NCBI GenBank assembly: GCA_003167495.1
Contig: PMSX01000224.1
Span: forward strand, 20,216-84,215
DNA length: 64,000 nt
Reading direction: 5' to 3'
Source of the DNA: Bryobacterales bacterium
Lineage (GTDB): Bacteria > Acidobacteriota > Terriglobia > Bryobacterales > Bryobacteraceae
Shown in pieces: positions 10,663 through 37,985 of this stretch (the stretch's first letter is position 1; the number at the start of each line of letters is the position of its first letter). The translations under genes were made by a program, and so were the position numbers. Below the pieces are notes generated by a model. It ran no database searches. It had not been told where the DNA came from and saw only the letters and a program-made list of their open reading frames with translations.

Positions 10663-10851
10663 AGTTTAGCTCAGATGTTTCGGTGCAAGACTCCGACGCG
10701 AAAGGGGACGGCCGCCGGTGAACGCGTCAGAAGTTTTGTTGTTGCGTGCTTTCTCATGCCCATGGTGAGTTCGTTCGTTGTTGGCCAAAAAGCCGGGTTT
10801 ACGAACATGGTCGTTGTGCTGCATATTGCGCGTCTGTGATGTGACATCGGG

Positions 10852-11781
10852 CTACGCGGCGGCTGCGGCTGTACCCCTGCAGAAATCTTTTTGGAGGCCG
10901 TGTTTGGCCAGTTCGGCATTGTATTGCGCTTCGAAGCCAGGGTCTTCCGAGGCGGCTTTGCGGTTTTGGTGGACGTTTTGGCCGATGCGGAAGCAAGTTT
11001 CGGCGTCTTTTTTCAGAACCTCCCAATAGTGCGTTTGTTTTTTCATTTCGTGACGCTCGTTTTTGATGCGGAGTTCCTCTTGGCTGTGAGTTTGCGCTTC
11101 AAAGCCATTGTCGTTCTTGCGTCTTTCGGCTCTTAGCTTTACGAGGTCGTTGAGTGATTTGTGGAAAGCGCGGGTGTGGGTGGTTTGGTAACGCAGGTAG
11201 AGGGAGAACATCTTCGCGTCAGTGATTTGCCCGGTTTGCAGGTCGAAGCACGAGTTTTGGATGCTTCCGGCTCTATTTGCCAGCCAATGAGACTCCGCCA
11301 TGGTGCTTACTAATATGGATTCGGTTTCGGTGGTGGGTTGGTGTTCCGCAGCCAGAGAGGCTTTTAACGCTTCGAAGCCATTGGGGTCCTCGGTTGATAA
11401 GAGGAGGAAGACGCCGTTGTGGCGAGCGAGGCCGTGGGAGGTGCGGTTTTGGGAGGAGATGGCGCGACCCGCGGCTGTGACAGGTCCGGTGGAGAGTTCG
11501 GCGTTGGCTCGGTTGGCGGCGAGTTGGGCCGGGGAGATGGAGGAGAGCGAGGGGAAGGGAAGGCCGGGTTCGGGGATTCCGGCGACGGTGACCGGCGTGG
11601 CAGCAGCGGTGGGCGCGGGGGCGGTTGGTGGGGTGGCGGAGATGTGCTCGGCTCGCTCACTGGTACAGGTAGAGGCAGCTGCGCCAACTTGCTCGGCGTT
11701 CTCCGGTTGGGTGGTGAGACCGGCTTTGCGCGCGAGTTTCCGTTCTTTGTGCGCGGAGGCGCGGCGTTCTTTGCGATTCAT
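10852..11781 (-). CDS. uncharacterised protein, copy A of a two-member paralogue family in this window
   Basis: I prefer ATG 11781 (RBS aaagga; MNRKERRASAHKERK) over the track's TTG start at 11865. The N-terminus matches the start of copy B (MDRTERRAAARQ). Core motifs are AQLAANRANAELSTGP..SSQNRTSHGLARHNG plus three GFEA motifs. I recognise no known domain. Confidence 0.7.
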   Translation of the reverse strand: MNRKERRASAHKERKLARKAGLTTQPENAEQVGAAASTCTSERAEHISATPPTAPAPTAAATPVTVAGIPEPGLPFPSLSSISPAQLAANRANAELSTGPVTAAGRAISSQNRTSHGLARHNGVFLLLSTEDPNGFEALKASLAAEHQPTTETESILVSTMAESHWLANRAGSIQNSCFDLQTGQITDAKMFSLYLRYQTTHTRAFHKSLNDLVKLRAERRKNDNGFEAQTHSQEELRIKNERHEMKKQTHYWEVLKKDAETCFRIGQNVHQNRKAASEDPGFEAQYNAELAKHGLQKDFCRGTAAAAA

Positions 11782-12942
11782 TATTGATAGTCCTTTCGGT
11801 TGCTTAGAGCCGTAAATAGAAAGCGCGGCGGCGAGTGAAGGATCGCGCCACGGATCTGCGTTCAAAATAGCGTGGGTTGGGAGATGCGCAGAACGCAGTG
11901 TGGGTTTTATAGGCGGCGGAGGGCGGTAAGTGGATGAGAGGATTGGAGATAGAAGTTTGGGATTATTTCGCCGGTTTGTGACTGACTTTTGGGGGCCTTT
12001 TGTAGAGGGCGTGGTGAGATCGGAGAATGATCTGATTCGAGGGCGAGAACAGTGGAATGGCGAACCCCGGCGGCCATACAGAGGATCTTCTTCCCATAGG
12101 GCTCTTCTGTCGCGGATGAGGGATTTCTGTTGCGAAGGAATAAGTACGCTAATCGGAACTCGGGCTGTTACTGCTTTCCAGAAGAACCCGCGGTTGAATC
12201 GGAGACAAAAGCCAGCGGCTGATCATCCCGCGCTGGATGGTTGGGGGAGACAGACTCACGGGACCCCGAAAATACGTTGCCGCTTCTTCGCAGTCGCGGC
12301 TAGAGGTTTTCGTGTGAATAGAGGGCGAGTTACTGGAGAGAGGAAACGCTGCCGGGTGGCAGCTGGGAGCGCCCAGCGAGTCTCGTTTGAAGTTTATTTC
12401 GGCTCCACTTTACTGGGAGAGATCGACTGCTATCGGAGAACCTTCATCCGACGCAGTTAGCTCATGGACCGGAACTGAAATCGGCCTGTTTGTTTTCAAC
12501 TCGCTGAAGCTGACGTTGACCCGCTAGCTTGACGCGGCTCATGGCGGGCAGACTTCTCAGTGTCCGAGCAACGTCACTTTCGGCCACAACCCGTTCTATC
12601 ATCCCGGATGTGCTCGCGAATGTGTTAGCGATCCTTTGAAAACGTAGAAATTTGAACTTTGGCCCGCACAGCAACATCATCTGCGCCGCAGGCGATCATG
12701 CGTCCGATCATCTGCACCGTCGGTTGGTGCCGACAGCTTCACTTCAACTCCTTGGAGGGTGTCCGGGTTTTCATAATCTTGGACCTTAAAGCGGTTTCCG
12801 AGGCCTTCGAGGCGGGCCAACTTCCAACTAGCCGACCCGCTGGACGCGATTAGTAAACCCTGCGCCGTTACACACGACTTTCGCAGCGACTAAGTTTTAA
12901 AGTTCCGCCGGCAACCTACTTGAGAACGAGTTGAACCAGGTC

Positions 12943-15104
12943 CTAATTACCTTTTGTCTCCGTCGTGTAAGCGAGACGACTTCCGTCTGGCGTGACAGCT
13001 AGATCTCCGGAGTAGGGGCGGGAACGGGAGCAATATCCGAGGAGTTTTTCGTGGCAAAGGAATAAAAACTAAACGCTCGAGGTAGCCCGCCAGGCGAATA
13101 GCTTACATAGTAAATGCCATCATCGACGGGCTGAAACTTGCCGTTTGGCGGAAGATAGTCCGGCACGATTCGAACCTCGGGATTTCTTAATAGATCACCT
13201 CGTAGACTGCGGGCATAAATCCCAAGCTGGTCTGACTTTGCGTATAGCAGCAAATTCTGCTTTGGACTCTCGACAGCGTACAAACCAGCCCAAAGAAACT
13301 GTGCAGAGCCCGCTGCTAAAGAAAGGCGATACAGGAGAGCTGTTCCGTGAGGTTCCAGCATATACAGGGTCTTGCCGTCTTGCGAAAATGAAGGTTGCGC
13401 GAACCCGCGGCTTCCATTGGTGAGTTGTTTGGTAAACCCGTCTCGCAGGCGAACGGTAAAGATTTGAGCCTTATCAGGTATTCGCGCATGGAATGCGAGA
13501 AGCGTTCCATCTGGAGACCACGAGGGAGGACCCACAAGAACCGCGTTGAGGTGAGTCACTTGGCGCAGATTGTTCCCATACGCGTCTGCCACCCAAATCT
13601 GCCATCCGCCGCCCCGGTTGCTTTTAAAAGCTATACTCCGCCATCGGGAGAAAAACGAGGAGATTCCTCTTCGGCGGTGGACGGGGCAAAGCGTGTCGCA
13701 GCCTCCGCGGGATTTAGACCCTTGAGCGGTTGGACCCATAGGTCGGTATCATCCGTGTGACTCGAAGCCACCAGCGTTTGTTCTGAAGCACTAAAGGTCA
13801 ACCCTTCCAAAGTTGCTTCGGTGGCATACACAAGCCGCGCTGGATGACCGATTTCAGCCTGCACCACTCTATGCCCATAGCTATCGAGGAAAAGAACCCT
13901 GTTGCTATCCGGTAGCCAAATCGGAGCTGTCGCATTGGCTATGGTGTCGCTGACAGCGACAGGCTCGCCCTCCGTATGAAGGTCGTCGGTAATCCGCTGA
14001 AACCATAACTTACTGCTCCACGGCCCTCCGTAGAAACGCGCGAACACCAGCCAACGTCCATTTGGCGAAAACGCGGGCGCTGCGTCGTCATCGCCGTCGT
14101 TGGTGCCTGCCGTAGTAAGCAGCGGCCTCGTGGCGCCCGACCCGGTGGATAGCAAAAACAACCTGTGATGGCTGTCTGCGAACTCCCTGCTTGTGAAGCA
14201 TAGCCACTTCCCATCCGACGTCCACGACATCAATCTTCCTGCGCCTTTAACGGCAAAGCCAATGTTGATTGGGTGCAAACTCCGCTCTGGCCCACTGATT
14301 GAGGGAATCAGCATGATGTCGCCTTCGGCTTGGGTTCTACGTCGCATAAATGCAATGTATTTACCATCAGGCGACCATATGGGAAAGGCATCGTCGGCCT
14401 GGGCGGAAGTAAGACGCATGGAATTCGATTCGCCCAGCAGCTTGATATAGATGTGCCCGTGGCCATCTCCGCCATCCCACGAAAAAGCCACTTGGTGGCC
14501 GTCGGGAGAAAGCGAAGGTTCCCGTTCGTCGCCGGGGTAAGAGGTCACCGGCGAAACGCGCGTCACCCCGACAAGCTGCGCCGGTCTCTTTAACCACAGC
14601 ACAACGCCGACCACCACCAGGGCGGCCAGTGCAATTGCCGCCACCAGCCAGCGCGAAATGCCAGGCTTAACAGAAGCGACCTCGATAGGCGTTCTGTTGA
14701 GGTCCGCTGGAGCCTCGGGCAAATCAGTTTGATCCTTGGGTAGATCGCCGGATGCAACGGTGCCATTGAGCGCCGCAACAAAACGATACCCTTAGCGAGG
14801 CACGGTTTCGATGTACCGGGGATGGGGTTGCCTCGTCCAGCAAAACTCCGCGTATCTGCCGGATGCAAAAGTTGATGTTCGGCTCGACGTCAATATATAC
14901 GTTTTCGCCCCACACCCGCCGCCGTATCTCGTCCCGCGAAACAACTGCCGGTGCCCGTTCGACAAGCAACGCTAAAACTTGCCATGGCTGTTTTTGAAGC
15001 TTGAGACGAACCCCTCTCCTCGAAAGCGTTTGCCGAGCGAAGTCAAGTTCAAAATCGCCAAAAGAGCAAGTCCCGTCGCGTTTGGATGCTGCTCCGCCAG
15101 TCAT
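12943..15104 (-). pseudogene. decayed CadC/OmpR-type winged-helix regulator fused to a TM segment and a TolB-like beta-propeller
   Basis: Three consecutive ORFs (14724..15104, 13631..14722, 12999..13739) plus a tail read as one protein. The sequence ..FGDFELDFARQTL..CIRQIRGVLLDEA shifts frame to PRYIETVPR*GYRFVAALNG, which contains an in-frame TAA. SPRFSPDG shifts to RSIAFKSNRGGGWQIWVADAYG near 13640. After the stop at 12999, the sequence GDLAVTPDGSRLAYTTETKGN* continues in another frame. Confidence 0.7.
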
Positions 15105-15253
15105 TTAGCAGATAGTTTACCGCTTCTTGATGCGCGGGGTCCGGGATTAACTGGCTTCCCTTCAATATTTTAGATCCTCATGTCCATCTGAGGAATAACT
15201 TCTGCTCAAACTCATTCTCTTCCGCCGCAACTCATGGCAAAGTCAGCCTCAAG

Positions 15254-16234
15254 ATGAAAAAGTTTATTGGACTTCTTTTGTTCGGCCTTCAGATTTGCAC
15301 ACTGCAGGCCGCGCCGCAAAGTTGGATTGAGTGGGTATCGGAAGGTAAGGCGTCCGTGGCGGTCGGGAACTACAAGGCGGGCCTTGACGCATTTCATAAA
15401 GCATTGGCGAACGGTGAAAGCTCAAAGATACCGGCTAGGCAATTAGTGGAAATTACAGTTTCTCTGGCGGCCGCGTACTCCGAGTTGGGGTTGTACGCCG
15501 ATTCGGAAGGGGCCTGGCGCAAAGCCCTCGCAATGGTAGAGAACACCGAGGGGACAGCCTCGCTTGATTATGCGGTGGTGCTTGCTAATATGCTGACTCT
15601 CCCCATCCAAACCACGCGCAACGAAAAGGACATTCAAACGCTTCGCCGGGCGATCGTCACGCCTCGTAAAACCGACTCGCCAACAGATTTGGCGATGGTG
15701 CGTGCGTGTTTGGCGAACCTTCTGATGAGACAGCTTAAGTATGGCGAAGCGGAGACCTTGCTGCTGGATTCGCTAGCAGATTTTGACCGCCTCAAAGAAA
15801 GTGAGCCGCAACTGGTGGCAACAGTTCTCGACCTGCTTGGGAAAATCCGCTACGAGCAAGGTCGCTTTGCCGAAGCGCTTCAATTGCACAGCCGATCGCT
15901 CAACATTCTGGAGTCCACCCTCGGCGCCCAACACCCCAGTTTGATTGTCACTCTTAACGACTTGGCCAGCGCTATGGTCAAAGCGAACCGCAGCGAAGAA
16001 GCCGCCGCACTTTATCAACGCGCAATACTCCTTTGCGCCAAAACTCTAGGTCTGGATCATCCAGAGTATGGAGTTGTTCTCGAAAACTACTCGTTCGTAC
16101 TGAAGAAATTAGGCCGCAAGCATGAGGGCAAAGAACTGGCCGCCCGCGCTAAACAAATTCTCTCAGCCTCCGACCGCCGCAACGGAATTGGCGCAGTTGT
16201 TTCGGTCTCCGCCCTGCGCGCTGACAAGAAGTAG
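15254..16234 (+). CDS. exported tetratricopeptide-repeat (TPR_10/12-like) protein
   Basis: 326-aa ORF with signal peptide MKKFIGLLLFGLQICTLQA. It has repeated ~42-aa A/L/Y-rich helical units (..LAAAYSELGLYADSEGAWRKALAM.., ..LGKIRYEQGRFAEALQLHSRSLNI..). Confidence 0.75.
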   Translation: MKKFIGLLLFGLQICTLQAAPQSWIEWVSEGKASVAVGNYKAGLDAFHKALANGESSKIPARQLVEITVSLAAAYSELGLYADSEGAWRKALAMVENTEGTASLDYAVVLANMLTLPIQTTRNEKDIQTLRRAIVTPRKTDSPTDLAMVRACLANLLMRQLKYGEAETLLLDSLADFDRLKESEPQLVATVLDLLGKIRYEQGRFAEALQLHSRSLNILESTLGAQHPSLIVTLNDLASAMVKANRSEEAAALYQRAILLCAKTLGLDHPEYGVVLENYSFVLKKLGRKHEGKELAARAKQILSASDRRNGIGAVVSVSALRADKK

Positions 16235-16269
16235 TTACCGATTTTTCAAAAGGAAGGAAAGAAAGGAAA

Positions 16270-16990
16270 GTGAAATTCACTCAAATCAAAACTTCGTTAC
16301 CCATCAGGACACTGGTGCTGACTTTCGGTAGTTTGGTCGTCACTGCCAGTGCTGAGACGCCAATCGACGCTTCTATACTTACGCCCTATGTTACCGGCCT
16401 TCAGGGGCCCGCGGTTTGACATTCGGACAGGACGGTAGCTTATATGTTGCCGAAGGAGGCACCGGAGGAACAAACTCGACCGGCGCGATCTGCGTTCAGG
16501 TCCCCGCGCCCGCCGGTCCTTATACGGGCGGAGCAACAGCGCGGATCTCGCGCATCGACAGCAAGGGTAATCGCACGACGCTGGCAGGCGGCGGATGTTC
16601 GCACGGCAATCCCACGCTTCCCAACGGTATTGTGGGAGTGGATACACACACTGGCGCCTGGAAGTATGTCACCGATCTCAGCGTCTTCAACGCGGAGCAC
16701 CGGCGGCCTATACCGATAGCGGCGATTTCGAAGCGGACGGCCAACCTTACAGCATGATCGCTTTCCACGGCGATCTCTGGTCGGCCCTATTTTGTTTCGG
16801 CAGCAGAACGGAACCGTGTGGGCCGCAAGCATTGATTTGCTGCGGTTCAAGGGGCAGAAGGCCACTACCGTTTTGTCCTTGGGCGACTCGACAACATGGA
16901 AAGGCGACGAGCGCGCCTTGCCTCGTTCGAGCTTCATCTCCCGATTCTTGAGAGTCGGGCCGGATGACTCCCTGCTTTCGCTGACATCGC
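16270..16990 (+). pseudogene. decayed ScyD/ScyE-family (NHL-like beta-propeller) gene
   Basis: GTG 16270 gives the signal-like VKFTQIKTSLPIRTLVLTFGSLVVTASA...LQGP. A frame change then leads to RGLTFGQDGSLYVAEGGTGGTNSTGAICVQVPAPAGPYTGGATARISRIDSKGNRTT. Further family-like pieces (..YTDSGDFEADGQPYSMIAFHGDLW.. and ..FRQQNGTVWAASIDLLRF..) sit in two other frames. The total length is too short for the family. Confidence 0.5.
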
Positions 16991-17080
16991 TTGTCCTGGA
17001 CACACGTTTGGGTTAGACTGTCTGAAACCGGACCGGCAAAAGCAGATTCCCGGCTATTTAGAGACTTTGGGGTGAAACTG

Positions 17081-18382
17081 ATGTTCGCTTGTGGACGCTT
17101 CAGAAGTGTGATACTGGCGTGCGGTCTCATGCCAGTTGTGAGTTGGTTCGCCCCTGGCCGAGAAACGGGCGCGAACCAGATTGTCGTGCTGCACGCGTCG
17201 CGTGTGTTGGATGTGGCGACAGGAAGAATAACCGCGCCGGGCGAGGTTCTGGTTCAAGGTGAGCGTATTGTGAGTGTCGGGAGTTCCGTGGCGCATCCTG
17301 CCGGAGCCGAATACATCGATCTGGGAGATCGCACTCTCCTCCCTGGCCTGATTGACGCTCATGTGCACCTTTTTCTTCATCCCGGAGACGAGGCCGATCA
17401 ATCGGTGCGTGAATCCGTGCCGCAGCGAACCATCTCCGCTGTGTTGGCGGCTAAAGCGGATCTGGTGGCGGGCTTCACTGCCGAGCGCGACATGGGGACA
17501 GAGGGCGCCGGTTCCGCCGACACGGCCGTCCGCAATGCCATCAATGCCGGCCTGGTGCCAGGCCCTCGCCTGCGCATCAGTGGCAACGCGGTGGACATTG
17601 TCGGTGGTCACGAGGACTTCACTAAAGATTTGGGTCCGCAGCAACAGATTCTGCCGAACGCGACATGGGCCAACAACGCCTCCGAGTTGGTAACCGTCAT
17701 TCGCCAACAATTTAAGGAAGGTGCGGACTTCATCAAGATCTATGAGACAGGCGCCGATTCGATTGTCGACGGGAAATTTTCGACCCCCTTTCAGTTCACC
17801 GAAGAAGAGATGCGTGTTGCCGTTCAGGAAGCTGCCCGCGTCCACAGACAGGTTGCAGTGCACGCAACAGGCGAACCCGGCACCCTCTATGCGGCCCGCG
17901 CCGGTGTGGCGAGCATCGATCATGCCGACCAACTGAGCGATGAGACGATGCGCATCATGCGCGAGAAGCGAATCTTTGCTGTGCCAACGTTTGCGATCTC
18001 GGAGTATTTCGCGGATCATACGCAAGGCAACGATCGCGCGAAACGTGGGCTAGAATTTCACGCTCTGGAATTCCGCCGGCAACTGGAAGCGGGCGTGCCG
18101 ATTGCGAGCGGCTCCGATGTTGGCCCGTTTCCGCACGGGACTCAGGCGCGCGAGTTCGAACTGCTGGTGAAGTACGGCATGACGCCGCTGGCGGCCATTC
18201 AAGCAGGCACAATGAATGCCGCCGAGCTGCTGCGCTGGTCAGAGCAGATCGGCCAATTAAAGGCGGGTTTTCTTGCTGACATTGTCGCGGTGCCAGGCAA
18301 CCCTTTGACCGATATCAGCGAACTAACAAAGGTGGCCTTTGTGATGAAGGGCGGAGTCATTTACCGGCGGCCAAAAACCTAG
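17081..18382 (+). CDS. exported amidohydrolase-family metallohydrolase (COG1228/prolidase-imidazolonepropionase-like)
   Basis: ATG 17081 follows ggggtga and gives a signal-like N-terminus. The metal motif is LIDAHVHLF. The C-terminal part reads ..ASGSDVGPFPHG.. and ..GFLADIVAVPGNPLTDI... Confidence 0.85.
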   Translation: MFACGRFRSVILACGLMPVVSWFAPGRETGANQIVVLHASRVLDVATGRITAPGEVLVQGERIVSVGSSVAHPAGAEYIDLGDRTLLPGLIDAHVHLFLHPGDEADQSVRESVPQRTISAVLAAKADLVAGFTAERDMGTEGAGSADTAVRNAINAGLVPGPRLRISGNAVDIVGGHEDFTKDLGPQQQILPNATWANNASELVTVIRQQFKEGADFIKIYETGADSIVDGKFSTPFQFTEEEMRVAVQEAARVHRQVAVHATGEPGTLYAARAGVASIDHADQLSDETMRIMREKRIFAVPTFAISEYFADHTQGNDRAKRGLEFHALEFRRQLEAGVPIASGSDVGPFPHGTQAREFELLVKYGMTPLAAIQAGTMNAAELLRWSEQIGQLKAGFLADIVAVPGNPLTDISELTKVAFVMKGGVIYRRPKT

Positions 18383-18404
18383 CGTTTCAGCTACAATCGA
18401 CAAA

Positions 18405-19832: not shown

Positions 19833-20095
19833 CTGGGACCCGCGACATAAAAGTGATAGATTCGCGGAAATGTAAGGCAAACGTAGAAGTCCGAGCGTAG
19901 CATCAGGCTGAGCCGCGACCGCAAGGGAGTGCAACGCAAAGCCGCTGCGCTTCCTCCGCTTTTGGGTCGCACAACCAAATAGCTGCGGCACGGCCCATTA
20001 CCTGGATAATTTAGTTAAGATAGTCTGGTGCTCGGTGCGACACGTTCCGCTCCTAGCGCTGCGCTAAGCAGTCGATCTATAGGAGGGCGTGGTTC

Positions 20096-21166: not shown

Positions 21167-21181
21167 TCCAGCGAGACAGTC

Positions 21182-24803: not shown

Positions 24804-24823
24804 ACAAGCTCAAGAATTTGGTT

Positions 24824-28273: not shown

Positions 28274-29035
28274 CTTGTCTCCTTTGATCAAAGCGTCTAG
28301 ACGGTCAATGTGAATGGCTGAAAAAGGGACTGAACGTGCCCAACCCTGCTGGAACAGGGGCGGCATTCAAGAGCACAAGAGGGTGCCCCTCAAGACGTGA
28401 GACTTTGCTCGTTGACAAGTGTTCGCCCATTGCAACACGGAGAGTAATCACTCTAAATGCCCCAGGCGAAATTTGGAATTGATTATAAGCTGGAAACTAA
28501 CTGCTGTCAATGCGAACGGATGGCGAATATATGCCGCGCAGTTTTGACTCAGCTCGCCCTGACCTAGCCAGCGTGATCACTTAATAGATTCCAACGTAGC
28601 CGCATCAAAAATCTCTATCGTGGGGTCTGATCCAAAAAGTTTTTAGGTCATGACGGAGCTGCCAAGTTTCCGGTCAGGCGAAACCATAAAGCCAAGCATG
28701 GGGACTGTCGACGTTACGTGCATGGCATCCTCCGCTTTTGGCGATGGCTAATTCATGGTTGACATGATCCCTGGCGGTTTGCGTTATTGTGACGCGAGTT
28801 ATCCAGGAGATTGATATCGACAAAATAGAAAATCGATAAGTCCAGCGCGACCGCTTATTGTCGATCATTTCCTCTCGGAAGCCGTCCGTTTGACGAGGAT
28901 CGGTCACGAGTATGTCAGTTAGAGGGTGACCGGACTTAAGTGGGCGTTTTTAGACGGGAGTCAACGGGGAATCGCGCACGTCGGTTTCTGAGGGTATGTT
29001 CGGCCTTTCGCTCTGAATTGGAGTGGGGCGTGAAT

Positions 29036-30832
29036 TCAAAAACCCTTTGGCCGTTCGTTCACCACGTTCAGCGCTCGTTCCAGGGCAATTCCCAGAGTGG
29101 CAAGCGTCCCCTCATCGAACAGCCGTCCAATCAACGTGATGCCATGTGGCACACGCCTCGGCGGCGAAAACTTGGGAAGGGGATGACTTGGATCTGGAGC
29201 CCAGTCACTGCGGGCTTCGGACACTTGCACAAAGCCAGCGCGCAATGTCAGTGACGGGTGCCCCGTAAAGTTGCTGATGGTCAGCATCTCATCACGTAGC
29301 GAAGGAACAAGCAGAACATCTACTTCGGAAAAGATTCGGGCCATCTCCTGGGCTACCCTGCGCCGGAGCCGGTCGGTCTGGACGAAATCTACCGCGGAAA
29401 GGAAGCGCGCTTGCCGGAACAGGTTGGGCCATGCGTCGGGCACCTGCGCTTTTAATTGCCCCAGTCCGCCGCTGAGAGTGAGTTCCTCAAATGCCGCGGC
29501 GGCCTCTGCAAACAGAATTAAGTTGAGAGATGAATACGGCCAGTCGGGAAGAGAAACCTCCACCGGAACCATCCCCAGCTTGGCTGTCATCTCCAAGGCA
29601 GCACGATCCACCTCAGTGGCGGGATTCTCTTTCATCCAAGCCGCCACGTAGCCTACGTGGAGTCCCCTGATTGAGGCGGTGGCATCGAAAGTCAGGTGAC
29701 TGGGCACACTTGCCACGTCGCCCGCATCCGGTCCGGAGATTGCTTGCAGCACAAGCATTGTGTCCTCTACTCCCCGCGTCATCGGCCCGAGTTTGTCGAG
29801 TGACCAGCACAGTGTCATCGCCCCTGTCCGCGGCACGCGACCGTAGGTGGGACGGAGTCCTGTAACACCACAACGCATCGCTGGACTCACAATACTGCCT
29901 CCTGTCTCACTGCCGATCGAGAAACCCACCAATCCGGCAGCTGTTGCCGCTCCGGGCCCGGCACTCGATCCGGATGCACCCTCCTCCAGCAACCAAGGAT
30001 TCATCGTCTGCCCGCCGAACCAGATATCGTTCAGCGCTAATGCGCCCAGGCTCAGTTTCGCAACGAGAATTGCCCCCGCCTCGCGGAGCCGTTTCACCAC
30101 CGCGGAATCCTGCTCGGGCACGCGATTTCGATACGGCTCAGCACCGTATGTAGTCGCCACGCCGGCGGTATCGAGCAAGTCTTTTGCACCCCAGGGAATT
30201 CCATGCAGAGGGCCGCGATATTTGCCTGCGGCAATTTCTTGGTCGGCTTGTTTCGCTTGAGCCATCGCTGAATCGCGCATCAGGGTGATCACGCACCGCA
30301 GTTTGGGATCGAAACGTTCCAACCGATCGAGGTAAATGCTAGTCAGTCGAACGGAAGTGAGCCTCCTCGATTCAACCCACCGGGCAAGTTGTGTCAGTCG
30401 AGCGAAAGCAACTTCAGTGTCGTCTGCGGGAACAGCTTGGCCGGCATTTTGTGTGCGAGTGAATCTCCCGCCTCCCGTTCCCACCCTTTGACCAGGCAGC
30501 ACCGGATCCCAGCGCGAAGCGGGTGCGGTTGATGCATCCAACGATAACTTTCTCGGCCCTGTGCGGCGCTCATAGACCGGCGCCATGCTGTTGCGCCAAT
30601 TTCCCACAGCCACTTCTCGCTCTGTTGCGCTCAGTTCTACCTGCATTAGCTTTTCTGCTTCGGCAAAAGTCGCCACAGTAACCGGCGGACCAGCCTCCGG
30701 CGCAGTACCGAACGCCGAAGGTTCACCAGGTGGGGTCGAGGTAGGCTTCTTTTCCGTGACCTTACGACAAGCCGTAGTTGCTATTAGGCTTGCGGACACA
30801 CCGCTCAGAAATTGTCGGCGCGATTTTGACAT
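29036..30832 (-). CDS. amidase-signature family amidase with a twin-arginine (Tat) signal
   Basis: ATG 30832 follows ggaga. The Tat signal is MSKSRRQFLSGVSASLIATTAC. AS motifs are ..GSSAGPGAATAAGL.. and ..GSETGGSIVSPA... Confidence 0.85.
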   Translation of the reverse strand: MSKSRRQFLSGVSASLIATTACRKVTEKKPTSTPPGEPSAFGTAPEAGPPVTVATFAEAEKLMQVELSATEREVAVGNWRNSMAPVYERRTGPRKLSLDASTAPASRWDPVLPGQRVGTGGGRFTRTQNAGQAVPADDTEVAFARLTQLARWVESRRLTSVRLTSIYLDRLERFDPKLRCVITLMRDSAMAQAKQADQEIAAGKYRGPLHGIPWGAKDLLDTAGVATTYGAEPYRNRVPEQDSAVVKRLREAGAILVAKLSLGALALNDIWFGGQTMNPWLLEEGASGSSAGPGAATAAGLVGFSIGSETGGSIVSPAMRCGVTGLRPTYGRVPRTGAMTLCWSLDKLGPMTRGVEDTMLVLQAISGPDAGDVASVPSHLTFDATASIRGLHVGYVAAWMKENPATEVDRAALEMTAKLGMVPVEVSLPDWPYSSLNLILFAEAAAAFEELTLSGGLGQLKAQVPDAWPNLFRQARFLSAVDFVQTDRLRRRVAQEMARIFSEVDVLLVPSLRDEMLTISNFTGHPSLTLRAGFVQVSEARSDWAPDPSHPLPKFSPPRRVPHGITLIGRLFDEGTLATLGIALERALNVVNERPKGF

Positions 30833-30864
30833 GTATTCTCCGTGCAACTCATTTTTGAAAAGAC

Positions 30865-32199
30865 CTAGTGGGGGGGCGGATACAGGCCTATGGCGTTGTC
30901 GTGCAAGTAGCCATGCGCGATCTCAATCGCCTTATCCTCCGTTACCTCATTTGAAGCAACCATTTCAGCAAGAGCGGCGGCCAGCGCATCGCGCGCTGAG
31001 TAGACGCCCAACCAATAGGTCTCCTCCGAGCCCAGAGCGGCGCTGTACGGGTACGCATCCGAGCCGAACGTAATCTTGTCGGGATAGGTCTCTAACCAAA
31101 GCTTTAAGACATTTTTCATTTCCGAAGGGTAAACAAGCGTCTCGATTTCCGATGTGTCAATGTAGACGTTCTTCATCGCCGCCAGCCAGATCACCTCTCG
31201 AAAATAGGGATACCCGCCGTGGATGAGAACGAACGTTGTGTTGAGGTAACGCGGGTCTTTGACAACGTTCTCGAGATTAAGTACGTCACCTTTCCGAAGA
31301 CTGAAGTAGTCTCCCTCCCCCACCGCCGTGTGAATATGCACGGGCAACCCCAAGCGGCCGCCCTCCCTGACCAAATAGCGAAAGACGTAATCCTGAAATG
31401 TCTTGTATTCCTCTGCAGTGGGAACACCTCCCGAATGGAACTTCTGATAGATCCCGGCCGCGGTCTCTCTAGGTGGGTCCGAAAAATAGAGCGACCGAAA
31501 GTAGCCCGCTTCGAACTTCTCCGCTATGCCGCCATTCTTCTGATTCTCCTCAAGAACTTTCGAAACGAACTTGAGATACCCGTCGAAGCTATCCGGCAAT
31601 TGGTTGAGGCTAACTTGTCGCATGTAACGGTGCAGCACCTTTTCCTGGAGCGGGATGTATACGCCTTCGTCCGGGTTTTCTGCAATCACCAGTTTGTTAT
31701 CGAAAGGGAAGAGGAACGAGTCCACAAAGAAAACCCAACGGAATCTTTGGGGATTCAAATACCCCGACATCGCTACACGATTCGCCACGCTGGACTCAAT
31801 ACCGCACTCATCGAGAATGCGGTCCCAATAGCCGGTACTGCCTTCTTTTTCAGCCTTATTCGATCGTTCTTGCAGCCAGCGCATGTGTTCTGCCGACAAA
31901 TCTGCATAAGGGTAGTCGAATAGAGCTTTCACGGCAATTACGAGTTCCGGGTTAGTCTCGCGCTGGCGAAACGGCAGATGCTCCGGCGGAGTGGCTTGAG
32001 CGTCGACGTCGGAATCATCGCCAAACCCAGGATGTGCGTGGTGATCGAAGATCTTGATCGATTTGATTTTTTCTAACAGGCGTTGATAAGTGCCCTGGAC
32101 ATCTCCTGAAGGCAAAGCCCGGGACTGCGGCCAAACTGGAACAACCACCGCAGCGCTGAGGAATGGAACGAGCATCCATTGAATTTGCTTCTGTTTCAT
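30865..32199 (-). CDS. exported TIM-barrel metal-dependent hydrolase (amidohydrolase_2-like)
   Basis: ATG 32199 follows aaggggg. The signal peptide is MKQKQIQWMLVPFLSAAVVVPVWPQ. It carries the HxH-like motif IFDHHAHPGF and is tightly spaced (32 nt) with the downstream Tat amidase. Confidence 0.7.
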   Translation of the reverse strand: MKQKQIQWMLVPFLSAAVVVPVWPQSRALPSGDVQGTYQRLLEKIKSIKIFDHHAHPGFGDDSDVDAQATPPEHLPFRQRETNPELVIAVKALFDYPYADLSAEHMRWLQERSNKAEKEGSTGYWDRILDECGIESSVANRVAMSGYLNPQRFRWVFFVDSFLFPFDNKLVIAENPDEGVYIPLQEKVLHRYMRQVSLNQLPDSFDGYLKFVSKVLEENQKNGGIAEKFEAGYFRSLYFSDPPRETAAGIYQKFHSGGVPTAEEYKTFQDYVFRYLVREGGRLGLPVHIHTAVGEGDYFSLRKGDVLNLENVVKDPRYLNTTFVLIHGGYPYFREVIWLAAMKNVYIDTSEIETLVYPSEMKNVLKLWLETYPDKITFGSDAYPYSAALGSEETYWLGVYSARDALAAALAEMVASNEVTEDKAIEIAHGYLHDNAIGLYPPPH

Positions 32200-32295
32200 C
32201 GTCGGCCCCCTTTTTGTTGAGACGTTCGCGCCAACGAGAACAGACTGTAGCACACAGTGAAGGTCGGGTCAACACCACTATCAGAAGTGTCAAGC

Positions 32296-32338
32296 CAAAA
32301 TATAAATGTCCCCTCTCGGCAAAATAGAAATGTCCCCT
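32296..32338. repeat. two tandem 19-bp direct repeats (period 24 bp) in the upstream region of the 32199 operon
   Basis: caaaatataaatgtcccct (32296..32314) and caaaatagaaatgtcccct (32320..32338) differ at one position. They lie about 100-140 nt upstream of ATG 32199 on the opposite strand. Confidence 0.6.
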
Positions 32339-32862
32339 TTTCCCTGGGGCTGTGCGGAATGCGTGTTAATCTGCGTGTGCCGGTGAAGCGGAGACGGGCA
32401 ATGCTGGCGAGCTGTTGCGCTAGTACTTCGTGGGACCCAGCCAAGAACTCGTTCGTTGAGAACCGCCTTGGCTGGCAACAAATCAGCCTCTACGTATTTG
32501 GATGGAATGCAGTGGAGCGATCAAATCTCAACAATCACTAAGGTCATGGCGCCAGGCAACGAGCGGACTACTGAAAACGTGCATTCAAGTCCCCTACCCG
32601 CTTTTCTAGGCGCCGAAGCTATTTTCATTCCAGTGCCCCAGATGGCCCGAGCCATCCAGGATCTACCATCATAGATTTCGCAGCTTTGCCGCCGGGAAAA
32701 ACTTGGGTCGGATAAATTTTCGGAGGCATCCACGCTTTTCCTCATCAGTTCCCCTACAACAAAAACGCACCCCCATATAATTCCGGTGCCGTGCCGTCCA
32801 AGCCAAGCGAAATGATTTTGAAGGTCTTCGTGAACCGCTAATTGTTGCACTGCGTCGCGGGG

Positions 32863-34443
32863 TTAATCCGAGCATGAAAGCCCCGCTGGGGGCCCAGTCG
32901 GTGCGCCTAGGCGGATGCCGTCTGAGTCGATCTTGTGGAATGAAAGATGCTGCACGGCCGGCGGCTGGGTCGGAGAGAGTGTGAAGAACACTCCGACCGC
33001 ACCTTTCTCACACGTGAGATTGAACTGGCCGCGAAGCCAGTTCTCTGCTATTACAGGCCCTGCGGCGCTGCATTCGCCGACTTGATCCTTGATCTTCTGA
33101 ATCTCCGCGCGGCGCTGCGCACTTGGAGCATCCAGAAAGAAGTTCACAGCAGCGATCTGTCTCGCCTCCGAGTCGTCCCAAGATTTCCAGAGATGAAGGA
33201 TATGTTCGCGCATCTCAGTCAGAATGGGAGACGCCGGTAATTCGCGCTTCTGAAGACCACCCGTTTTTAGGAAAGCATCCCAAGCCCGATTAATCGGCTC
33301 GGCTGGGCCCGCATAGGTCAGGCTAGCCATGGCAAACATGCCAACCCCATAATCGGGTAGCCACATCATGTAAGATCCGAAGCCCGGAAGGCCGCCGCCG
33401 TGACCGACGATATGTTCGAAGCGGCAATCGGTGCTTATGCGCAGGCCATAGCCGTAGCCCGATTCCGAGACATGCAGCGCGCCATCCGTATGCCTAACGG
33501 TGAGATTAGAAGGGGTCCACATATGGCTCATTTCGCGGACGGAGCTGCGACGCACTGGGCCTTCCTCCGCGTCGTCTCGCGGCGGCCATGCCGAAAGATG
33601 ATACGCGACATATTTTCCCAGGTCAATGGCAGTGGTCAGTAGCCCACCGGCGGAACCGAAAGCACCCTGGGGTAAAGGCGGTTCCTCACCATACGTTCCG
33701 TCTGGCTTTAGCCGGTAGCCGAGCACGCGAGTCTCAGCGGGAACATGCGAAGGCTGAAGCGTGGAATCGTCCATATGAAGCTTGCTCAGAATCTGAGTGG
33801 GAAGGTACTTCTCGTACGGCATTCCAGAGGCATTAGTCACTATGCGGCCTAACAGCCCAAAGGCATAGTTGGAGTATTCGTAACGAGTGTCCGGAGGTGT
33901 AGAAAAAGGAATCCCGGCGCGAAGCCATTTAGTGAGGTCGGCATCGCTGGCAGCAAGCTGCTGGTCGCCCCACGGGTTGTCCTCGGGAAAGCCGGCGCTG
34001 TGGCTGAGTATCTGGCGGACGCGTAACGGTGCGCTATCTCGGGTAGGTAAGTCCATCTTAGAAAATTCAGGAATCCACCTGGACACGGGATCTTCCAGCG
34101 ACAGCTTGCCCTCGTCGCGAAGCTTGAGAATAGCGAGCACCGTGAAGCTCTTTGTCATCGAAGCGATACGGAACGAACTGCGGGGAGAGACGGGGGTTCT
34201 CGACGCGAGGTCCTGCACGCCAGCCGATTCAACGTGCGCAAGGTTGCCGTCGATCACCACGCCCCAAACCATGCCCGGAATCTTGTTGTCAGACGCGAAT
34301 TGACGGAAGATGCGATCAACGTCAGGAAACGCAGCTTCGAGTTTGTGAACCCTTTCGGGATCAGTGAAGCGCGGTGGAGGGTAAGCATCACTCGCCAAAA
34401 GCATCCCTGCGGAGAAGAAGCAGCAGATCGGGAAGAATCGCAT
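32863..34443 (-). CDS. class-C beta-lactamase / D-aminopeptidase-like serine hydrolase with an extra C-terminal domain, exported
   Basis: 526-aa ORF with SxxK (ASMTKSF), YxN (YEYSNYAF) and HGG (GHGGGLPGF) motifs. It has a signal-like N-terminus. Confidence 0.85.
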   Translation of the reverse strand: MRFFPICCFFSAGMLLASDAYPPPRFTDPERVHKLEAAFPDVDRIFRQFASDNKIPGMVWGVVIDGNLAHVESAGVQDLASRTPVSPRSSFRIASMTKSFTVLAILKLRDEGKLSLEDPVSRWIPEFSKMDLPTRDSAPLRVRQILSHSAGFPEDNPWGDQQLAASDADLTKWLRAGIPFSTPPDTRYEYSNYAFGLLGRIVTNASGMPYEKYLPTQILSKLHMDDSTLQPSHVPAETRVLGYRLKPDGTYGEEPPLPQGAFGSAGGLLTTAIDLGKYVAYHLSAWPPRDDAEEGPVRRSSVREMSHMWTPSNLTVRHTDGALHVSESGYGYGLRISTDCRFEHIVGHGGGLPGFGSYMMWLPDYGVGMFAMASLTYAGPAEPINRAWDAFLKTGGLQKRELPASPILTEMREHILHLWKSWDDSEARQIAAVNFFLDAPSAQRRAEIQKIKDQVGECSAAGPVIAENWLRGQFNLTCEKGAVGVFFTLSPTQPPAVQHLSFHKIDSDGIRLGAPTGPPAGLSCSD

Positions 34444-34522
34444 GTATGTAAGGATGCCACAGTTCGCTCACGGTCGTGTCTCACATGCGATAACATAATT
34501 GGCTCGAAAGGGGTCCGTTCGA

Positions 34523-36763
34523 ATGAAGAACTTCGCGCTGCCATTCGCTTGCAAAATGGTTGGTGTTATCTGCTTCATCATTCTTTTGGGCGTCTATGCA
34601 AAGGGACAGACACCCCAGTCTCTCGACTCTCCACTGTCCGATCTCCCACGCCTGAAAACGTTCACCGCCCATCGGGCGTCGAGCGAGAACCCCTTTATTG
34701 GGAGCAACGACGATAGCAAGCGAATTATGCCCGGCGAGACTTTTGTGATGGCTGATCTCACTGGGCCGGGAGTAGTGAGTCATATCTGGCTCACAGTGGC
34801 GGATAACGAATATGCATGGCCTCGTCTCGTACGGCTGCGGATCTACTACGACGGGAAGAAAACGCCTAGCGTTGACGTACCTTTGGGGGATTTTTTCGGA
34901 GTAGGGCACGGATACGAACGGCAGCTCGATTCCCTGCCGGTTCGCGATAGCTCGTTCGGTCGAGCGCGCAATAGCTATTGGCCCATGCCATTCCGCAAGT
35001 CCTGCAGAATTACAGCCACTGATGAGGGCAACCGTCCCGTCACTATGTTCTACTACCATGTGGATTGGCAAAAGCACACCTCCTTGCCGCCCGATGTTGC
35101 CTACTTCCACGCCTACTACCGCCAGGAACTCCCTGCAATCTCAGGCAGGAACTACGAATTCTTGAGTGTTCGCGGGAAAGGCCACTATGTGGGCACCGTC
35201 CTCAACGTGATTCAGGCCGCTGTGGGCTGGTTCGGCGAGGGCGACGATTTGTTCTACGTGGACGGTGCCAAACACCCTCAAATTGCTGGTACCGGCACCG
35301 AAGACTATTTCAATGACGCCTGGGACCTCCGCGTCGCGAACGGGCCATGGACCGGCACACCAATCGCGGAAGGGGAACGCGTCGGCGCCCGGCTCGGTGC
35401 CTACCGCTGGCATGTTCCCGATCCCATTCCCTTCACTAAATCACTATGGGCAGGGATCGAACACGCCGGCTGGACCTACAACTCAGACGGTTCGATTCGC
35501 TCCGGCTTCGAAGAACGCCCCGACTTTTTCTCGAGTGTCGCCTTCTGGTATCAGATAGGTGTAAACGAGGAGCTTCCTGAACCTCCTTTCGGCGAAGCAC
35601 GCCTCCCGCTCGGCAACGCCCAGCAGATTGCCGTAGAAGATTCGTTAGCCGAAGTGACCACCACCAAGGGTAAAGCCTCCGTTCAACGTGAGGTGGATTG
35701 GGGCAGAGACCTGCTCTTCTTTGAGGCGGAGGGCATCGGCGCGCGAATTGATATTCCCCTCGATATTCAACAAACCGGTCGTTATGAGATCGTCGCTCGC
35801 GTCGCCCAAGCGCCCGACTACGGCGATTATTACGCTTTGCTCGACGGCAAACCTACCAACCTGGACAATCGGCAGGCGGCAACGTCGGAGATACCGTCGG
35901 CCGGCCCGGAAGTCTTTCACAACTATCTGCCGGAAATCTATATCGCGATCGATCACCCGTTAGGTTGGCTCCAATTGGATAAAGGCCGCCACATTCTCAG
36001 CTTCGTTTGTAGCGCACGTGACGGCCGTTCTTCGGGTTACAACCTGGGCATCAACGACGTAATTTTAGAGCGAATCTCCGAGATCGTACCTACTACCGCT
36101 TCTCAGTCGCCTCGCCCCGCCGTCTCTCTACACACCAGCGAGACGGTGTATCGCGGACGACCTCTCTCGTTTTACCGCAGCGAACTGCGGCATACAACTG
36201 CCAGCCATCGCATGGAAATCGTGAGAAGCATCGGCTCTTTTCGAGAAGATGCCGTCAGTGCTCTCGGAGACCTTTCGCCTCTGCTCCAAGAGCCTGACCC
36301 GAACGTTCGCTTGGCAGCCGCCTGGGCTCTTTCTCAGATCGGACCGAAGGGTGCGGCATCCGTCCCAACTCTCCGAAGCTCGTTGGTTGACTCAGATCCT
36401 CGGGTGCGCTGTCTATCGGCGATAGCGATTCGGGAGATTGGTCCCACGGCTGTCCTCGCAATTCCAAGTTTGGTGAACGCCCTGGGCGATCCTGAGCCTT
36501 CCGTCCGGGCTTCGGTCGCGCAAGCTATCGGAGTGATGGGAGCGGCCGCAAAAACCGCGGTACAGCCTCTCGCTATTCGGCTCACGATTCCAGAGGAACA
36601 AAGCTATGTTCTGCGCAGCGTGGTGGTGGCACTCGGCAAAATTGGCCCCGGCGCCGCAAGCGCGCTCCCGGCTTTGGAAGACATGGTGCATGCGCACCGC
36701 CTTGCCTACATCGCAAGCGCTTCAATCATGCAGATAAAAGGACAGCCGGTTCCCGCTTGGTAG
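34523..36763 (+). CDS. DUF2961 (GH172-like) domain protein fused to C-terminal HEAT repeats, exported
   Basis: ATG 34523 follows aagggg, and a signal peptide is present. From memory, ..GEGDDLFYVDGAKHPQIAGTGTEDYFNDAW.. is typical of DUF2961. The C-terminus carries at least four HEAT-like units (DPNVRLAAAWALSQIG.., DPRVRCLSAIAIREIG.., EPSVRASVAQAIGVMG..). Confidence 0.65.
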   Translation: MKNFALPFACKMVGVICFIILLGVYAKGQTPQSLDSPLSDLPRLKTFTAHRASSENPFIGSNDDSKRIMPGETFVMADLTGPGVVSHIWLTVADNEYAWPRLVRLRIYYDGKKTPSVDVPLGDFFGVGHGYERQLDSLPVRDSSFGRARNSYWPMPFRKSCRITATDEGNRPVTMFYYHVDWQKHTSLPPDVAYFHAYYRQELPAISGRNYEFLSVRGKGHYVGTVLNVIQAAVGWFGEGDDLFYVDGAKHPQIAGTGTEDYFNDAWDLRVANGPWTGTPIAEGERVGARLGAYRWHVPDPIPFTKSLWAGIEHAGWTYNSDGSIRSGFEERPDFFSSVAFWYQIGVNEELPEPPFGEARLPLGNAQQIAVEDSLAEVTTTKGKASVQREVDWGRDLLFFEAEGIGARIDIPLDIQQTGRYEIVARVAQAPDYGDYYALLDGKPTNLDNRQAATSEIPSAGPEVFHNYLPEIYIAIDHPLGWLQLDKGRHILSFVCSARDGRSSGYNLGINDVILERISEIVPTTASQSPRPAVSLHTSETVYRGRPLSFYRSELRHTTASHRMEIVRSIGSFREDAVSALGDLSPLLQEPDPNVRLAAAWALSQIGPKGAASVPTLRSSLVDSDPRVRCLSAIAIREIGPTAVLAIPSLVNALGDPEPSVRASVAQAIGVMGAAAKTAVQPLAIRLTIPEEQSYVLRSVVVALGKIGPGAASALPALEDMVHAHRLAYIASASIMQIKGQPVPAW

Positions 36764-36969
36764 CGGTTCGCGACCACCGCCACTGCCGATCACAAACCTT
36801 CGAAAAAATCCTCGCATTTCTATCTCCCATCCTCTCAGCCACTTAGAATCATCTCGATCTCCAAAACCAAAAAAACCATTCAGACTAACCCGAAACCAAC
36901 GTTACTTTGAACTCAGACCCCGGGCAGGAGTTTTCACTCACGTCGGACATAAAGACAGGACCATCCAAC

Positions 36970-37789
36970 ATGGACCGCACCGAACGCCGCGCCGCCGCGC
37001 GCCAAGCTTTGAAACTCAATCGCAAAATCCAACCCAACATTAAACGTCGAAACTGAGCCACGGAGCGTCAGCGACCCCAGCTTGACATCCGCTATAGGGC
37101 ACGCCTCTGCCGCCCAACTCGCCGCTAACCGTGCCAACTCGCAGCACTCCTCCGGCCCAAAAACTGAGTCAGGTCGGGCCACTTCCTCCCAAAACCACAC
37201 CTCCCACGGCCTCGCCCGTCACAACGGCGCCTTCGTCCTCTTATCATCCGAAGACCCCAATGGCTTCGAAGCGTTAAAAGCAGCTCTCACCACCGAACAC
37301 CAACCCTCTACCGAAACCGAATCCATATTTGTCACCACCATGGCCGAATCCCACTGGCTTGCCAACCGCGCCCAGAACCTCCAAGCTGGCTGCTTCGATC
37401 CTCAAACCGGCCAAATCACCGACCCGAAAATGTTCACCCTCTACCTCCGCTACCGAACCACCCACACCCGCGCCTTCCACAAATCCCTCATCGACCTGCT
37501 AAAGCTAAGAGCCGAAACACGCAAAACCCAAAATGGCTTCGAAGCGCAAAACCGCAAACAAGAAGAGCTCCGCATCAAAAACGAGCAGCACGAAATGAAA
37601 AAGCAAACGCATTATTGGGACATTCTGCGAAAGGACGCCGAGGCTTGTCACCAGCTCGCCGCCAACACCACCCAACAAGTCAACGCAACAAAAGAAAATC
37701 CTGGCTTCGAAGCGCAATACGCCGCCGAACTCGTCAAACGTGGCCTGCAACGCCATCCAACCCGCGCCGCCACAGCAACCGCAGCCTAG
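36970..37789 (+). pseudogene. copy B of the uncharacterised paralogue family, frame-disrupted near the 5' end (a shorter product from TTG 37082 is possible)
   Basis: ATG 36970 gives MDRTERRAAARQALKLNRKIQPNIKRRN*, homologous to the start of copy A. The rest (..AAQLAANRANSQHSSGPKTESGRATSSQNHTSHGLARHNG..) is in the +1 frame, which is open from 37013. The P/A/T-rich linker of copy A is missing. Confidence 0.55.
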
Positions 37790-37985
37790 CTTGTAACCCT
37801 CCATATTTCGAGCCTCGACCAAGAAAAGGTGGGGACTGCGGCAGTACCCGGAATCAGCCCGATATTGAGCGGCAAGCCCAACCATCGCGCGCGGGCCGTC
37901 CGCATTTTTGCATTGCTCACCGCTTCATCGCGCCATCGCCGACCAGCGGGCTGACTGAGAAATCTTTTGGCAAGGTAGCCCATCA

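Follow-up and report, generated by a model that had tools for sequence, protein, structure and literature searches.

The stretch of DNA analysed here (the window) comprises 64,000 nucleotides (nt) of contig PMSX01000224.1, positions 20,216 to 84,215, from a Bryobacterales bacterium of the Acidobacteriota. It carries two homologous units, each made up of a conserved non-coding leader and a gene for an uncharacterised protein, which lie some 25 kilobases (kb) apart in opposite orientation. An earlier description (the original prediction) proposed that this inverted pair could serve as a substrate for inversion of the enclosed segment or mark the edges of an acquired or shuffled island. Probably, the two arms are instead separate, anciently diverged members of a lineage-expanded orphan family of Bryobacterales (Acidobacteriota), forming no functional pair and having no role in inversion or in an island. 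The acidobacterial origin proposed for the window DNA was correct, its KdsB and pyrroloquinoline quinone (PQQ)-dehydrogenase proteins having best matches labelled Bryobacteraceae, Solibacter or Sulfopaludibacter.

The two copies and their inverted homology

The features of the two copies are as follows.

10852..11781, minus strand: left family gene, intact, 309 amino acids (aa), identical to protein P0001
11782..11984, minus strand: left leader (nhmmer E = 8e-20)
11855-11984, minus strand: conserved G-poor block of the left leader, with GTCACA at 11977-11982, TTCTATCTCCAATCCTCTCATCCACTTA at 11927-11954 and GCTATTTTGAACGCAGA at 11855-11871
36787..36969, plus strand: right leader (nhmmer E = 1e-15)
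36787-36916, plus strand: conserved block of the right leader, with ATCACA at 36789-36794, TTCTATCTCCCATCCTCTCAGCCACTTA at 36818-36845 and GTTACTTTGAACTCAGA at 36901-36917
36970..37056, plus strand: remnant of the N-terminal motif in the right copy, MDRTERRAAARQALKLNRKIQPNIKRRN followed by a stop, out of frame with the core
37082..37789, plus strand: core open reading frame (ORF) of the right family gene, TTG start, 235 aa, identical to protein P0094

The left unit (10852-11984, minus strand) is homologous to the right unit (36787-37789, plus strand) over ~1.0-1.1 kb at 79% nucleotide identity. A repeat search of the window resolved this homology into three collinear inverted matches, these being 10891-11536 with 37105-37750 (646 nt, 79%), 11725-11797 with 36954-37026 (73 nt, 74%) and 11927-11954 with 36818-36845 (28 nt, 93%), the last of which is the string quoted in the original prediction. 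When the left unit was reverse-complemented and aligned to the right with MAFFT, identity rose from a background of 30-40% to 60-90% at TCACAAACC (left ~11982, right ~36789) and was back at background within a few bases past both stop codons. This agrees with the earlier account of a shared non-coding leader, here of ~130-200 nt, and of homology that ends at the stop codons. The distance from the start of the leader to the ATG is 203 nt in the left unit and 183 nt in the right. The two proteins share 73% identity over 216 ungapped aa (E = 2e-120), and the genes are paralogues, about three-quarters identical as had been judged by eye. The inverted homology is real and far beyond chance, and both genes point outward as described. 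The arm length of ~1.1 kb given earlier holds for the left unit, the right one being closer to 1.0 kb.

The left protein possesses an N-terminal basic helix (MNRKERRASAHKERKLARKAG), a linker rich in Pro/Ala/Thr, the conserved motif AQLAANRANAxxSTGPxTxxGRAxSSQNRTSHGLARHNG, a helical core and a C-terminal AAAAA. The 3′ part of its leader has a variable stem-loop region (~11823-11851) followed by a Shine-Dalgarno-like AAAGGA. The right gene, previously taken to be an intact ORF at 36970..37789, proved not to be one, as the ATG at 36970 opens a frame of just 28 codons closed by TGA and the core lies in another frame. Comparison with an intact relative (L038/P0053) places a +1 insertion at ~37040 (within 37030-37049). 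The N-terminal basic motif M(N/D)RxERRAxxxxxxKLxRK is accordingly in frame in the left copy and out of frame in the right, which may be a frameshifted pseudogene, an N-terminally truncated form or an assembly error. The C-termini read ...TAAAAA (left) and ...ATATAA (right).

A protein family with its own leader

Among 5.8 billion proteins searched, 716 relatives were found, mostly 270-290 aa in length and all unnamed or annotated as 'hypothetical'. Scanning one genome per GTDB species located 36 loci; of the 8 genomes that carry them, seven are labelled Bryobacterales and one Acidobacteriaceae, and the copy numbers are 1, 1, 2, 4, 5, 5, 7 and 12 per genome. A metagenome scan supplied 80 further loci (641 kb). 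The family is indeed multi-copy and occupies variable contexts (1-12 copies per genome), and clustering of all ORFs within 7 kb of each copy revealed no recurrent neighbour family or transposase.

An alignment of 25 members (A2) displays a fixed architecture with 67 invariant columns, and both window copies align throughout. It opens with the basic motif MNRKERRAAAHKxRKLARKAG and a variable Pro/Ala/Thr linker, followed by the invariant-rich motif ANRANAxxSxGPxTxxGRAxSSQNRTxHGLARHNG and a core with LYLRYQTTHTRAFHK, NGFEAQ and PGFEAQ. The full core signature of the family, AQLxANRANAxxSxGPxTxxGRAxSSQNRTxHGLARHNG...LYLRYQTTHTRAFHK...NGFEAQ...PGFEAQ, is present in both window copies. AlphaFold2 modelling (mean predicted local distance difference test score, pLDDT, 70) gives a confident N-terminal helix at residues 3-20, disorder at residues 22-122 and a helical core at residues 133-293, which includes a helix of ~90 residues with pLDDT >90. 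Nearly every complete member examined in A2 ends in Ala-Ala, whatever its length or subfamily, as do 10 of 10 distant superfamily representatives examined (among P0140-P0262). This ending resembles the ssrA/ClpX C-terminal degron, one of the signals recognised by ClpXP.

When 1.84 billion cluster representatives (clusters at 50% identity) were searched exhaustively with a profile, 18,469 clusters matched at E <= 1e-3, of which 3,824 also did so at E <= 1e-10; in the superfamily thus delimited, all cluster names are 'hypothetical'. Many of its proteins are ~200 aa long and start directly at the ANRANA/STGP motif. Profile searches of Pfam, NCBIfam, PHROGs, PADLOC and PDB sequences yielded nothing for the family protein, and Foldseek comparison of the predicted model with PDB and BFVD gave no match at E < 0.1. 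Phage small terminase subunits recur among the sub-threshold Foldseek matches (BFVD E = 0.18-1.4, probability up to 0.84; PDB entry 8pop, E = 5); with E >= 0.18, the small-terminase likeness is a mere lead and too weak to use. A search of plasmids and phages found one weak relative, on a Planctomyces plasmid, and none in phages. Uncharacterised as it is, the family has a mild interest of its own.

The 330 nt upstream of 24 full-length copies show no relationship at first; conservation sets in abruptly at (G/A)TCACA, ~180-215 nt ahead of the ATG, and continues with the blocks TTTTTATCTCCAATCC...CAAxCACTTAC and GCTATTTYTGAA. On its sense strand, the unit contains little G (18-20%, against 37% C), and this explains two strand-skew spikes in the window. 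For each full-length copy, a hidden Markov model (HMM) of the 135-nt leader block gave a single match, in every case upstream and in the sense orientation, and it matched nothing else in the genome loci (~0.9 megabases, Mb) and the window or in the metagenome loci (0.64 Mb). The leader also precedes L045:8994-9806, a very distant member that tblastn with the window proteins did not detect at E <= 1e-5, and whose product is nevertheless built like the others, with KERRAAA, ANxxNAxxSxGPxTxEG, NGFVF and AAA at its C-terminus.

No Rfam 15 family matched anywhere in the window at the gathering threshold; at E <= 1 over 10700-12200 (left copy and leader only), there was a single spurious match to a eukaryotic long non-coding RNA model (E = 0.37). 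RNAalifold gave no consensus fold for the whole leader, the 5′ end of which has no consensus structure. Between the last leader block and the ribosome-binding site, most copies possess a stem-loop, whose variants preserve pairing across subfamilies (AGAAAAGCC/GGCTTTTCT, GAGAAG/CTTCTC, AGAGAG/CTCTCT, GGGAG/CTCCC and GAGCCC/GGGCTC). In a subgroup of 24 sequences realigned with a covariance model, 77% of cells were paired, compared with 15-55% when the partners were slid, and 6 of 10 pairs had changed on both sides, a result matched by 2 of 500 shuffles; the covariation score was reached by 0 of 500. This support is moderate because the alignment was fitted to the model, and the covariance model did not match the two window copies at E <= 1.

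At the other end of the unit, a 3′ hairpin CACAC-N5-GTGTG(YC), 30-40 nt past the stop codon, occurs in L008-L012, L025-L033, L011, L014 and L017 and, in some subfamilies, coincides with the 3′ end of homology. It is absent from both window copies. A 3′ motif GCTTAC..CAC..AAGTGTGCC is common to L026 and the distant short member L049 (L049:6640-6665).

Origin of the arms and the enclosed segment

The kinship of the two copies lies elsewhere than with each other. The left core is 80-84% identical to P0005, P0006, P0008 and P0002, while the right core shares 90% identity with P0027 and 82% with P0053 and P0021, against only 72% between the two cores of the window. These relatives sit in unrelated surroundings, P0053 between an amidohydrolase/UPF0175 gene pair and an ABC transporter and P0027 at a contig end beside a TIR-domain gene, with another member, P0011, beside ParE/PIN/Uma2 genes. 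As each arm is closer to genes in other contigs or genomes than to its partner, the pair did not arise by duplication in situ. Synonymous divergence (dS) between the window copies is 0.63 and the ratio of nonsynonymous to synonymous divergence (dN/dS) is 0.28; the split is an old one, and purifying selection has acted on the core. In each arm, the N-terminal part and the core show the same affinities (A2), and the identity profile between left and right has no block of unusually raised identity; there is therefore no trace of exchange between the arms.

The enclosed segment and its surroundings have the following features.

11985..36786, no strand: enclosed segment, 24.8 kb of ordinary chromosomal genes
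11985..12998, no strand: gene-free stretch of ~1.0 kb with stops in all frames, upstream of the left leader
12999..14722, minus strand: PD40/Tricorn_N-like gene split into two overlapping ORFs (363 + 246 aa)
37958..37995, plus strand: kdsB promoter-like site and start of synteny, with TTGGCA-17-TACACT at 37967-37995

The enclosed genes code for a TPR protein, two amidohydrolases, an AstE/AspA-like protein, an S15 peptidase, two amidases, a CarboxypepD_reg/OMP beta-barrel receptor, an Amidohydro_2 protein, a beta-lactamase-fold protein and a DUF2961(GH172)-HEAT protein. The gene-free stretch reported at the left inner edge was recovered, 11985-12998 having stop codons in all frames and no Pfam match. 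A weak tblastn match there (E = 0.2), suggestive of a family remnant, was not confirmed by profile search of six-frame translations. Two decayed interior genes had been proposed, of which one, the split PD40/Tricorn-like gene, could be confirmed and the second could not; 12999-14722 appears to be the sole clearly decayed gene of the interior and, together with the adjoining stop-rich 1 kb, looks like local decay beside the left leader. A terminator-like hairpin (37891-37903) lies between the right copy and kdsB.

Could RecA-dependent recombination between the arms invert the 25-kb segment and so create a structural polymorphism or a switch? The pair has the inverted orientation and ~650 nt at 79% identity, and in Escherichia coli inversion between homeologous repeats of 22% divergence is rare but can be measured (PMC2327257). 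However, in that lambda assay, RecABCD-dependent inversion occurred at 3.5e-4 with identical repeats and 8.7e-7 with 22%-diverged ones, a ~400-fold drop (PMC2327257), and the arms share no exact match longer than 29 nt, the next being 21 and 20 nt. Given this drop and such short exact matches, inversion is conceivable over evolutionary time and not as a switch. The geometry recalls inversions between rrn operons or copies of an insertion sequence (IS), but those natural substrates are near-identical, with high identity and long exact stretches, whereas the window arms are ~21% diverged with at most 29 nt exact, and the expected frequency is orders of magnitude lower. Site-specific switches of the Hin/Gin/Fim or shufflon type rely on a serine or tyrosine recombinase encoded close by and on short inverted sites that are nearly perfect, while no recombinase domain was detected here in the scanned ORFs of at least 180 aa and the arms are long and diverged. 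Neither a raised-identity stretch nor chimerism records a past exchange, and flipping the segment would alter no obvious promoter-gene relationship. The window is also 100% identical to two independently named assemblies, over 27082-47789 to JGI Ga0395659_0000024 and over 852-21781 to ENA k141_50304, and both have the same arrangement, each at the one junction that it covers.

In another genome, a contig (L034, from the metagenome-assembled genome MFD04780.bin.2.106) has the 5′ flank of L026 on one side of the cassette and the 3′ flank of L027 on the other. This would fit recombination between these 96.6%-identical copies, but L034 is either a recombinant subpopulation or an assembly chimera. 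With 79% identity, a dS of 0.63, no exact run beyond 29 nt and one arrangement in two assemblies, the proposal that the window pair is an inversion substrate is not supported, and such inversion is highly improbable.

The reading of the 27-kb unit as an acquired genomic island or a composite transposon bounded by the two copies is scarcely credible. It could draw on the bracketing inverted repeats, on the decayed gene and gene-free stretch at the left inner edge and on a region upstream of kdsB that differs in all relatives examined. The composition of the segment, a check named in the original prediction, nevertheless does not stand apart from that of the flanks; GC content is 0.54-0.57 inside and 0.54-0.58 outside (0.54-0.58 across the window), and the tetranucleotide correlation between interior and flanks (0.967) falls within the range for arbitrary 24.8-kb segments (0.961-0.975). 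Genomic islands are expected to show atypical composition and a tRNA gene or integrase at the edge. No tRNA was found in the window, and domain scans of its ORFs of at least 180 aa detected no recombinase, integrase or transposase, in agreement with the earlier remark that no integrase or transposase was seen. No direct repeat of at least 7 nt, of the kind left as a target-site duplication, is common to the outer flanks or flanks either cassette. Composite transposons and IS-bounded islands likewise have two inverted homologous units around cargo genes, but the arms here encode no recognisable transposase, lack terminal inverted repeats and a target-site duplication, and share only 79% identity without being sister copies. 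As cargo, the enclosed hydrolase and receptor genes are typical of Bryobacterales.

Nor does the bracketed architecture recur. Outward-facing inverted pairs around variable cargo, whose recurrence the original prediction had proposed as a test, were absent, an inverted partner of this kind being found at 0 of 116 other loci (36 genome and 80 metagenome). Within ±10 kb of the 36 genome loci, a second copy was present at one, as a fragment in direct orientation 2.9 kb off, and none of the 80 metagenome loci had a second copy. Pairs sharing a contig over longer distances are in direct orientation (L016/L020, 33 kb apart; P0011/P0089, ~50 kb; L002/L006, 520 kb) or inverted and inward-facing (L092/L094, ~46 kb). 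The pair cannot on these grounds be taken as the edges of an acquired or mobile island, with a flat composition, arms that are not sister copies and an architecture that is not recurrent.

Other repeats were noted in the window and beside family members. Strong GC and AT skew at 60-64 kb had raised the suspicion of a third family copy, which neither tblastn nor nhmmer detected. This region possesses a direct repeat of ~82 nt in three copies (61752-61833, 63429-63510 and 63567-63648), 76-91% identical and unrelated to the cassette family, which may be a small element resembling repetitive extragenic palindromic (REP) sequences or miniature inverted-repeat transposable elements. An ORF with a BrnA antitoxin domain (E = 7e-11) lies at 60557-61018 on the minus strand. 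In different genomes, further short repeats adjoin cassettes (L004:10835-10905, L045:9830-9900 and the downstream flanks of L005, L010 and L022), examples being GCGCCGATTCTTYCTCGCC...GTTCGAAGCGTC...CAGTTCTTTGAAA and CGTAGGGCGGCCATTCCTGGCAG. Genomes bearing the family seem to be rich in small intergenic repeats.

The single cassette and the meaning of the family

Each member of the family is a compact unit, with a G-poor leader of ~130 nt from (G/A)TCACA, usually a stem-loop before the ribosome-binding site and an ORF of ~270-310 aa, to which some subfamilies add the short hairpin 30-40 nt past the stop codon. The leader may act as the promoter and 5′ untranslated region (UTR) of the unit. In 12 of 36 leaders, GTCACA is followed at 16-18 nt by an A-rich hexamer with at least 4 of 6 matches to TATAAT, and some copies have plausible -10 hexamers (TAAAAT, CATAAT after GTCACA-N17). 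The protein, from its Arg/Lys-rich N-terminal helix, long helical core and degron-like Ala-Ala, is suggested to be a short-lived nucleic-acid-binding or regulatory protein, and all copies are probably co-regulated via the shared leader. The window simply contains two such units 25 kb apart and in opposite orientation, too diverged for efficient inversion and delimiting no foreign or mobile island. Two old paralogues happen to lie in this arrangement, which is an ordinary consequence of a multi-copy family.

Several observations weigh against this account of old, passively inherited paralogues. Two copies within 25 kb by chance would be somewhat unlikely, at a few percent in a rough estimate that holds if the genome has few copies. 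The promoter assignment is weak, as just those 12 of 36 leaders have a -10 match of that quality and a sigma-70 consensus scan called no site in either window leader; with so few -10 matches and no site called, the role of promoter and 5′ UTR is put forward as no firmer than a suggestion. L026 and L027, which lie in one genome, are 96.6% identical with homology confined to the unit, a pattern that plain segmental duplication does not predict. The right copy, furthermore, stands exactly at a synteny breakpoint upstream of kdsB. Synteny with three relatives begins only at window positions 37958-37987, and everything upstream is entirely different. In one of the three (L045, KdsB 90% identical), the position directly ahead of kdsB that the right copy takes in the window is occupied, in matching orientation, by a different and very distant superfamily member with a GTCACA leader (L045:8795-9806). 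This hints at site preference or turnover of cassettes over passive paralogy. The two other relatives (L044 and L046) have no copy upstream of kdsB and, with the relatives wholly different upstream of 37958, no empty site is available from which a precise insertion boundary could be drawn. On the left flank, the best PQQ-dehydrogenase relatives (87-88% aa and 81% nt identity) share only that gene. Of the original reading of the pair as inversion substrate or island edges, this breakpoint at the right copy is the one element that stands.

Such observations bring up the possibility that the cassette (leader, ORF and sometimes 3′ hairpin) is itself a self-propagating or mobilisable element of an unfamiliar kind; the two arms would then be two independent insertions, and cassettes would seed rearrangement breakpoints. 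In similar within-genome pairs (L026/L027, 96.6%; L004/L005, 88%; L029/L035, 88%), homology starts a few bases from the leader start and ends 0-40 nt past the stop, the flanks being unrelated, and these discrete boundaries persist even at 96.6% identity. The variable contexts with up to 12 copies per genome, the non-orthologous member with the same leader at the kdsB-upstream site and the non-coding ends kept across deep protein divergence (the 3′ motif of L026 and L049) point the same way. Short-read contigs often end ~50-1000 nt from a family copy, frequently on the leader side (L003, L008, L009, L030, L036, L039-L041 and many of L052-L131), which fits the family acting as an assembly-breaking repeat and would explain why short-read assemblies of genomes bearing it often break beside copies.

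However, this possibility is unlikely. The family has no similarity to a transposase, an integrase, an HUH (histidine-hydrophobic-histidine) enzyme or a reverse transcriptase in Pfam, NCBIfam, PHROGs, PADLOC, PDB sequence or Foldseek searches. Terminal inverted repeats do not extend beyond ~4 nt (a candidate pairing of left GTCACA with right ...TGTG(C/T)(C/T) was rejected, with just ~4-5 matching bases), and neither a target-site duplication nor an empty site was found. The copies are mostly old, at 50-85% identity, and do not form near-identical bursts; selection alone would keep a promoter-to-terminator unit in old duplicates. Gene conversion could account for L026/L027, in which the coding sequence is more similar than the leader. 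The family is nearly absent from plasmids, with that one weak match, and absent from phages. Elements of the IS200/IS605 type, palindrome-associated transposable elements (PATE) and REP sequences with their associated tyrosine transposases (REP/RAYT) offer a partial parallel, as the cassette too is without terminal inverted repeats or target-site duplications and has a subterminal 3′ hairpin in some subfamilies. It differs in that no HUH/Y1 transposase was found, in the window copies lacking the 3′ hairpin and in the lack of a 5′ hairpin, the leader being G-poor and unstructured at its 5′ end.

Extended to the whole family, this line of thought makes the ~1.1-kb unit a new self-spreading gene cassette without known transposase or recombinase folds, which we regard as a doubtful proposition. 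The protein (basic N-terminal arm, STGP motif, 90-residue helix and Ala-Ala) would then either help the unit to be copied or serve as a selfish regulator, and copies would time and again insert at synteny breakpoints, or give rise to them, as at the kdsB-upstream site. If this were true, the superfamily of more than 18,000 clusters would constitute a large unrecognised class of mobile or selfish genes.

The account of old, dispersed paralogues has a close precedent in Candidatus Solibacter usitatus Ellin6076, a large Bryobacterales genome with dispersed paralogous families and heavy paralog expansion (PMC3174227). As in that genome, there are many diverged copies per genome in unrelated contexts, derived from old duplications. 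The cassette family differs in its discrete boundaries and in keeping its non-coding leader family-wide, even where the proteins are barely alignable, and it was not found described in that work (PMC3174227). Gene families with a shared 5′ leader (regulon-type leaders and riboswitch-like UTRs) are comparable in that the leader lies strictly upstream of one family and has a covarying stem-loop by the ribosome-binding site. The leader of the cassette has no Rfam 15 match, however, and its most conserved part is unstructured and G-poor.

The candidacy of the pair as an invertible or mobile island can be set aside, and the family is the part worth recording. It belongs to a large, nameless superfamily, with up to a dozen copies per genome in Bryobacterales, each with its leader and most with a covarying stem-loop. 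These features suggest either short-lived proteins under common regulation or a selfish cassette, within a lineage that is among the most abundant in soil.

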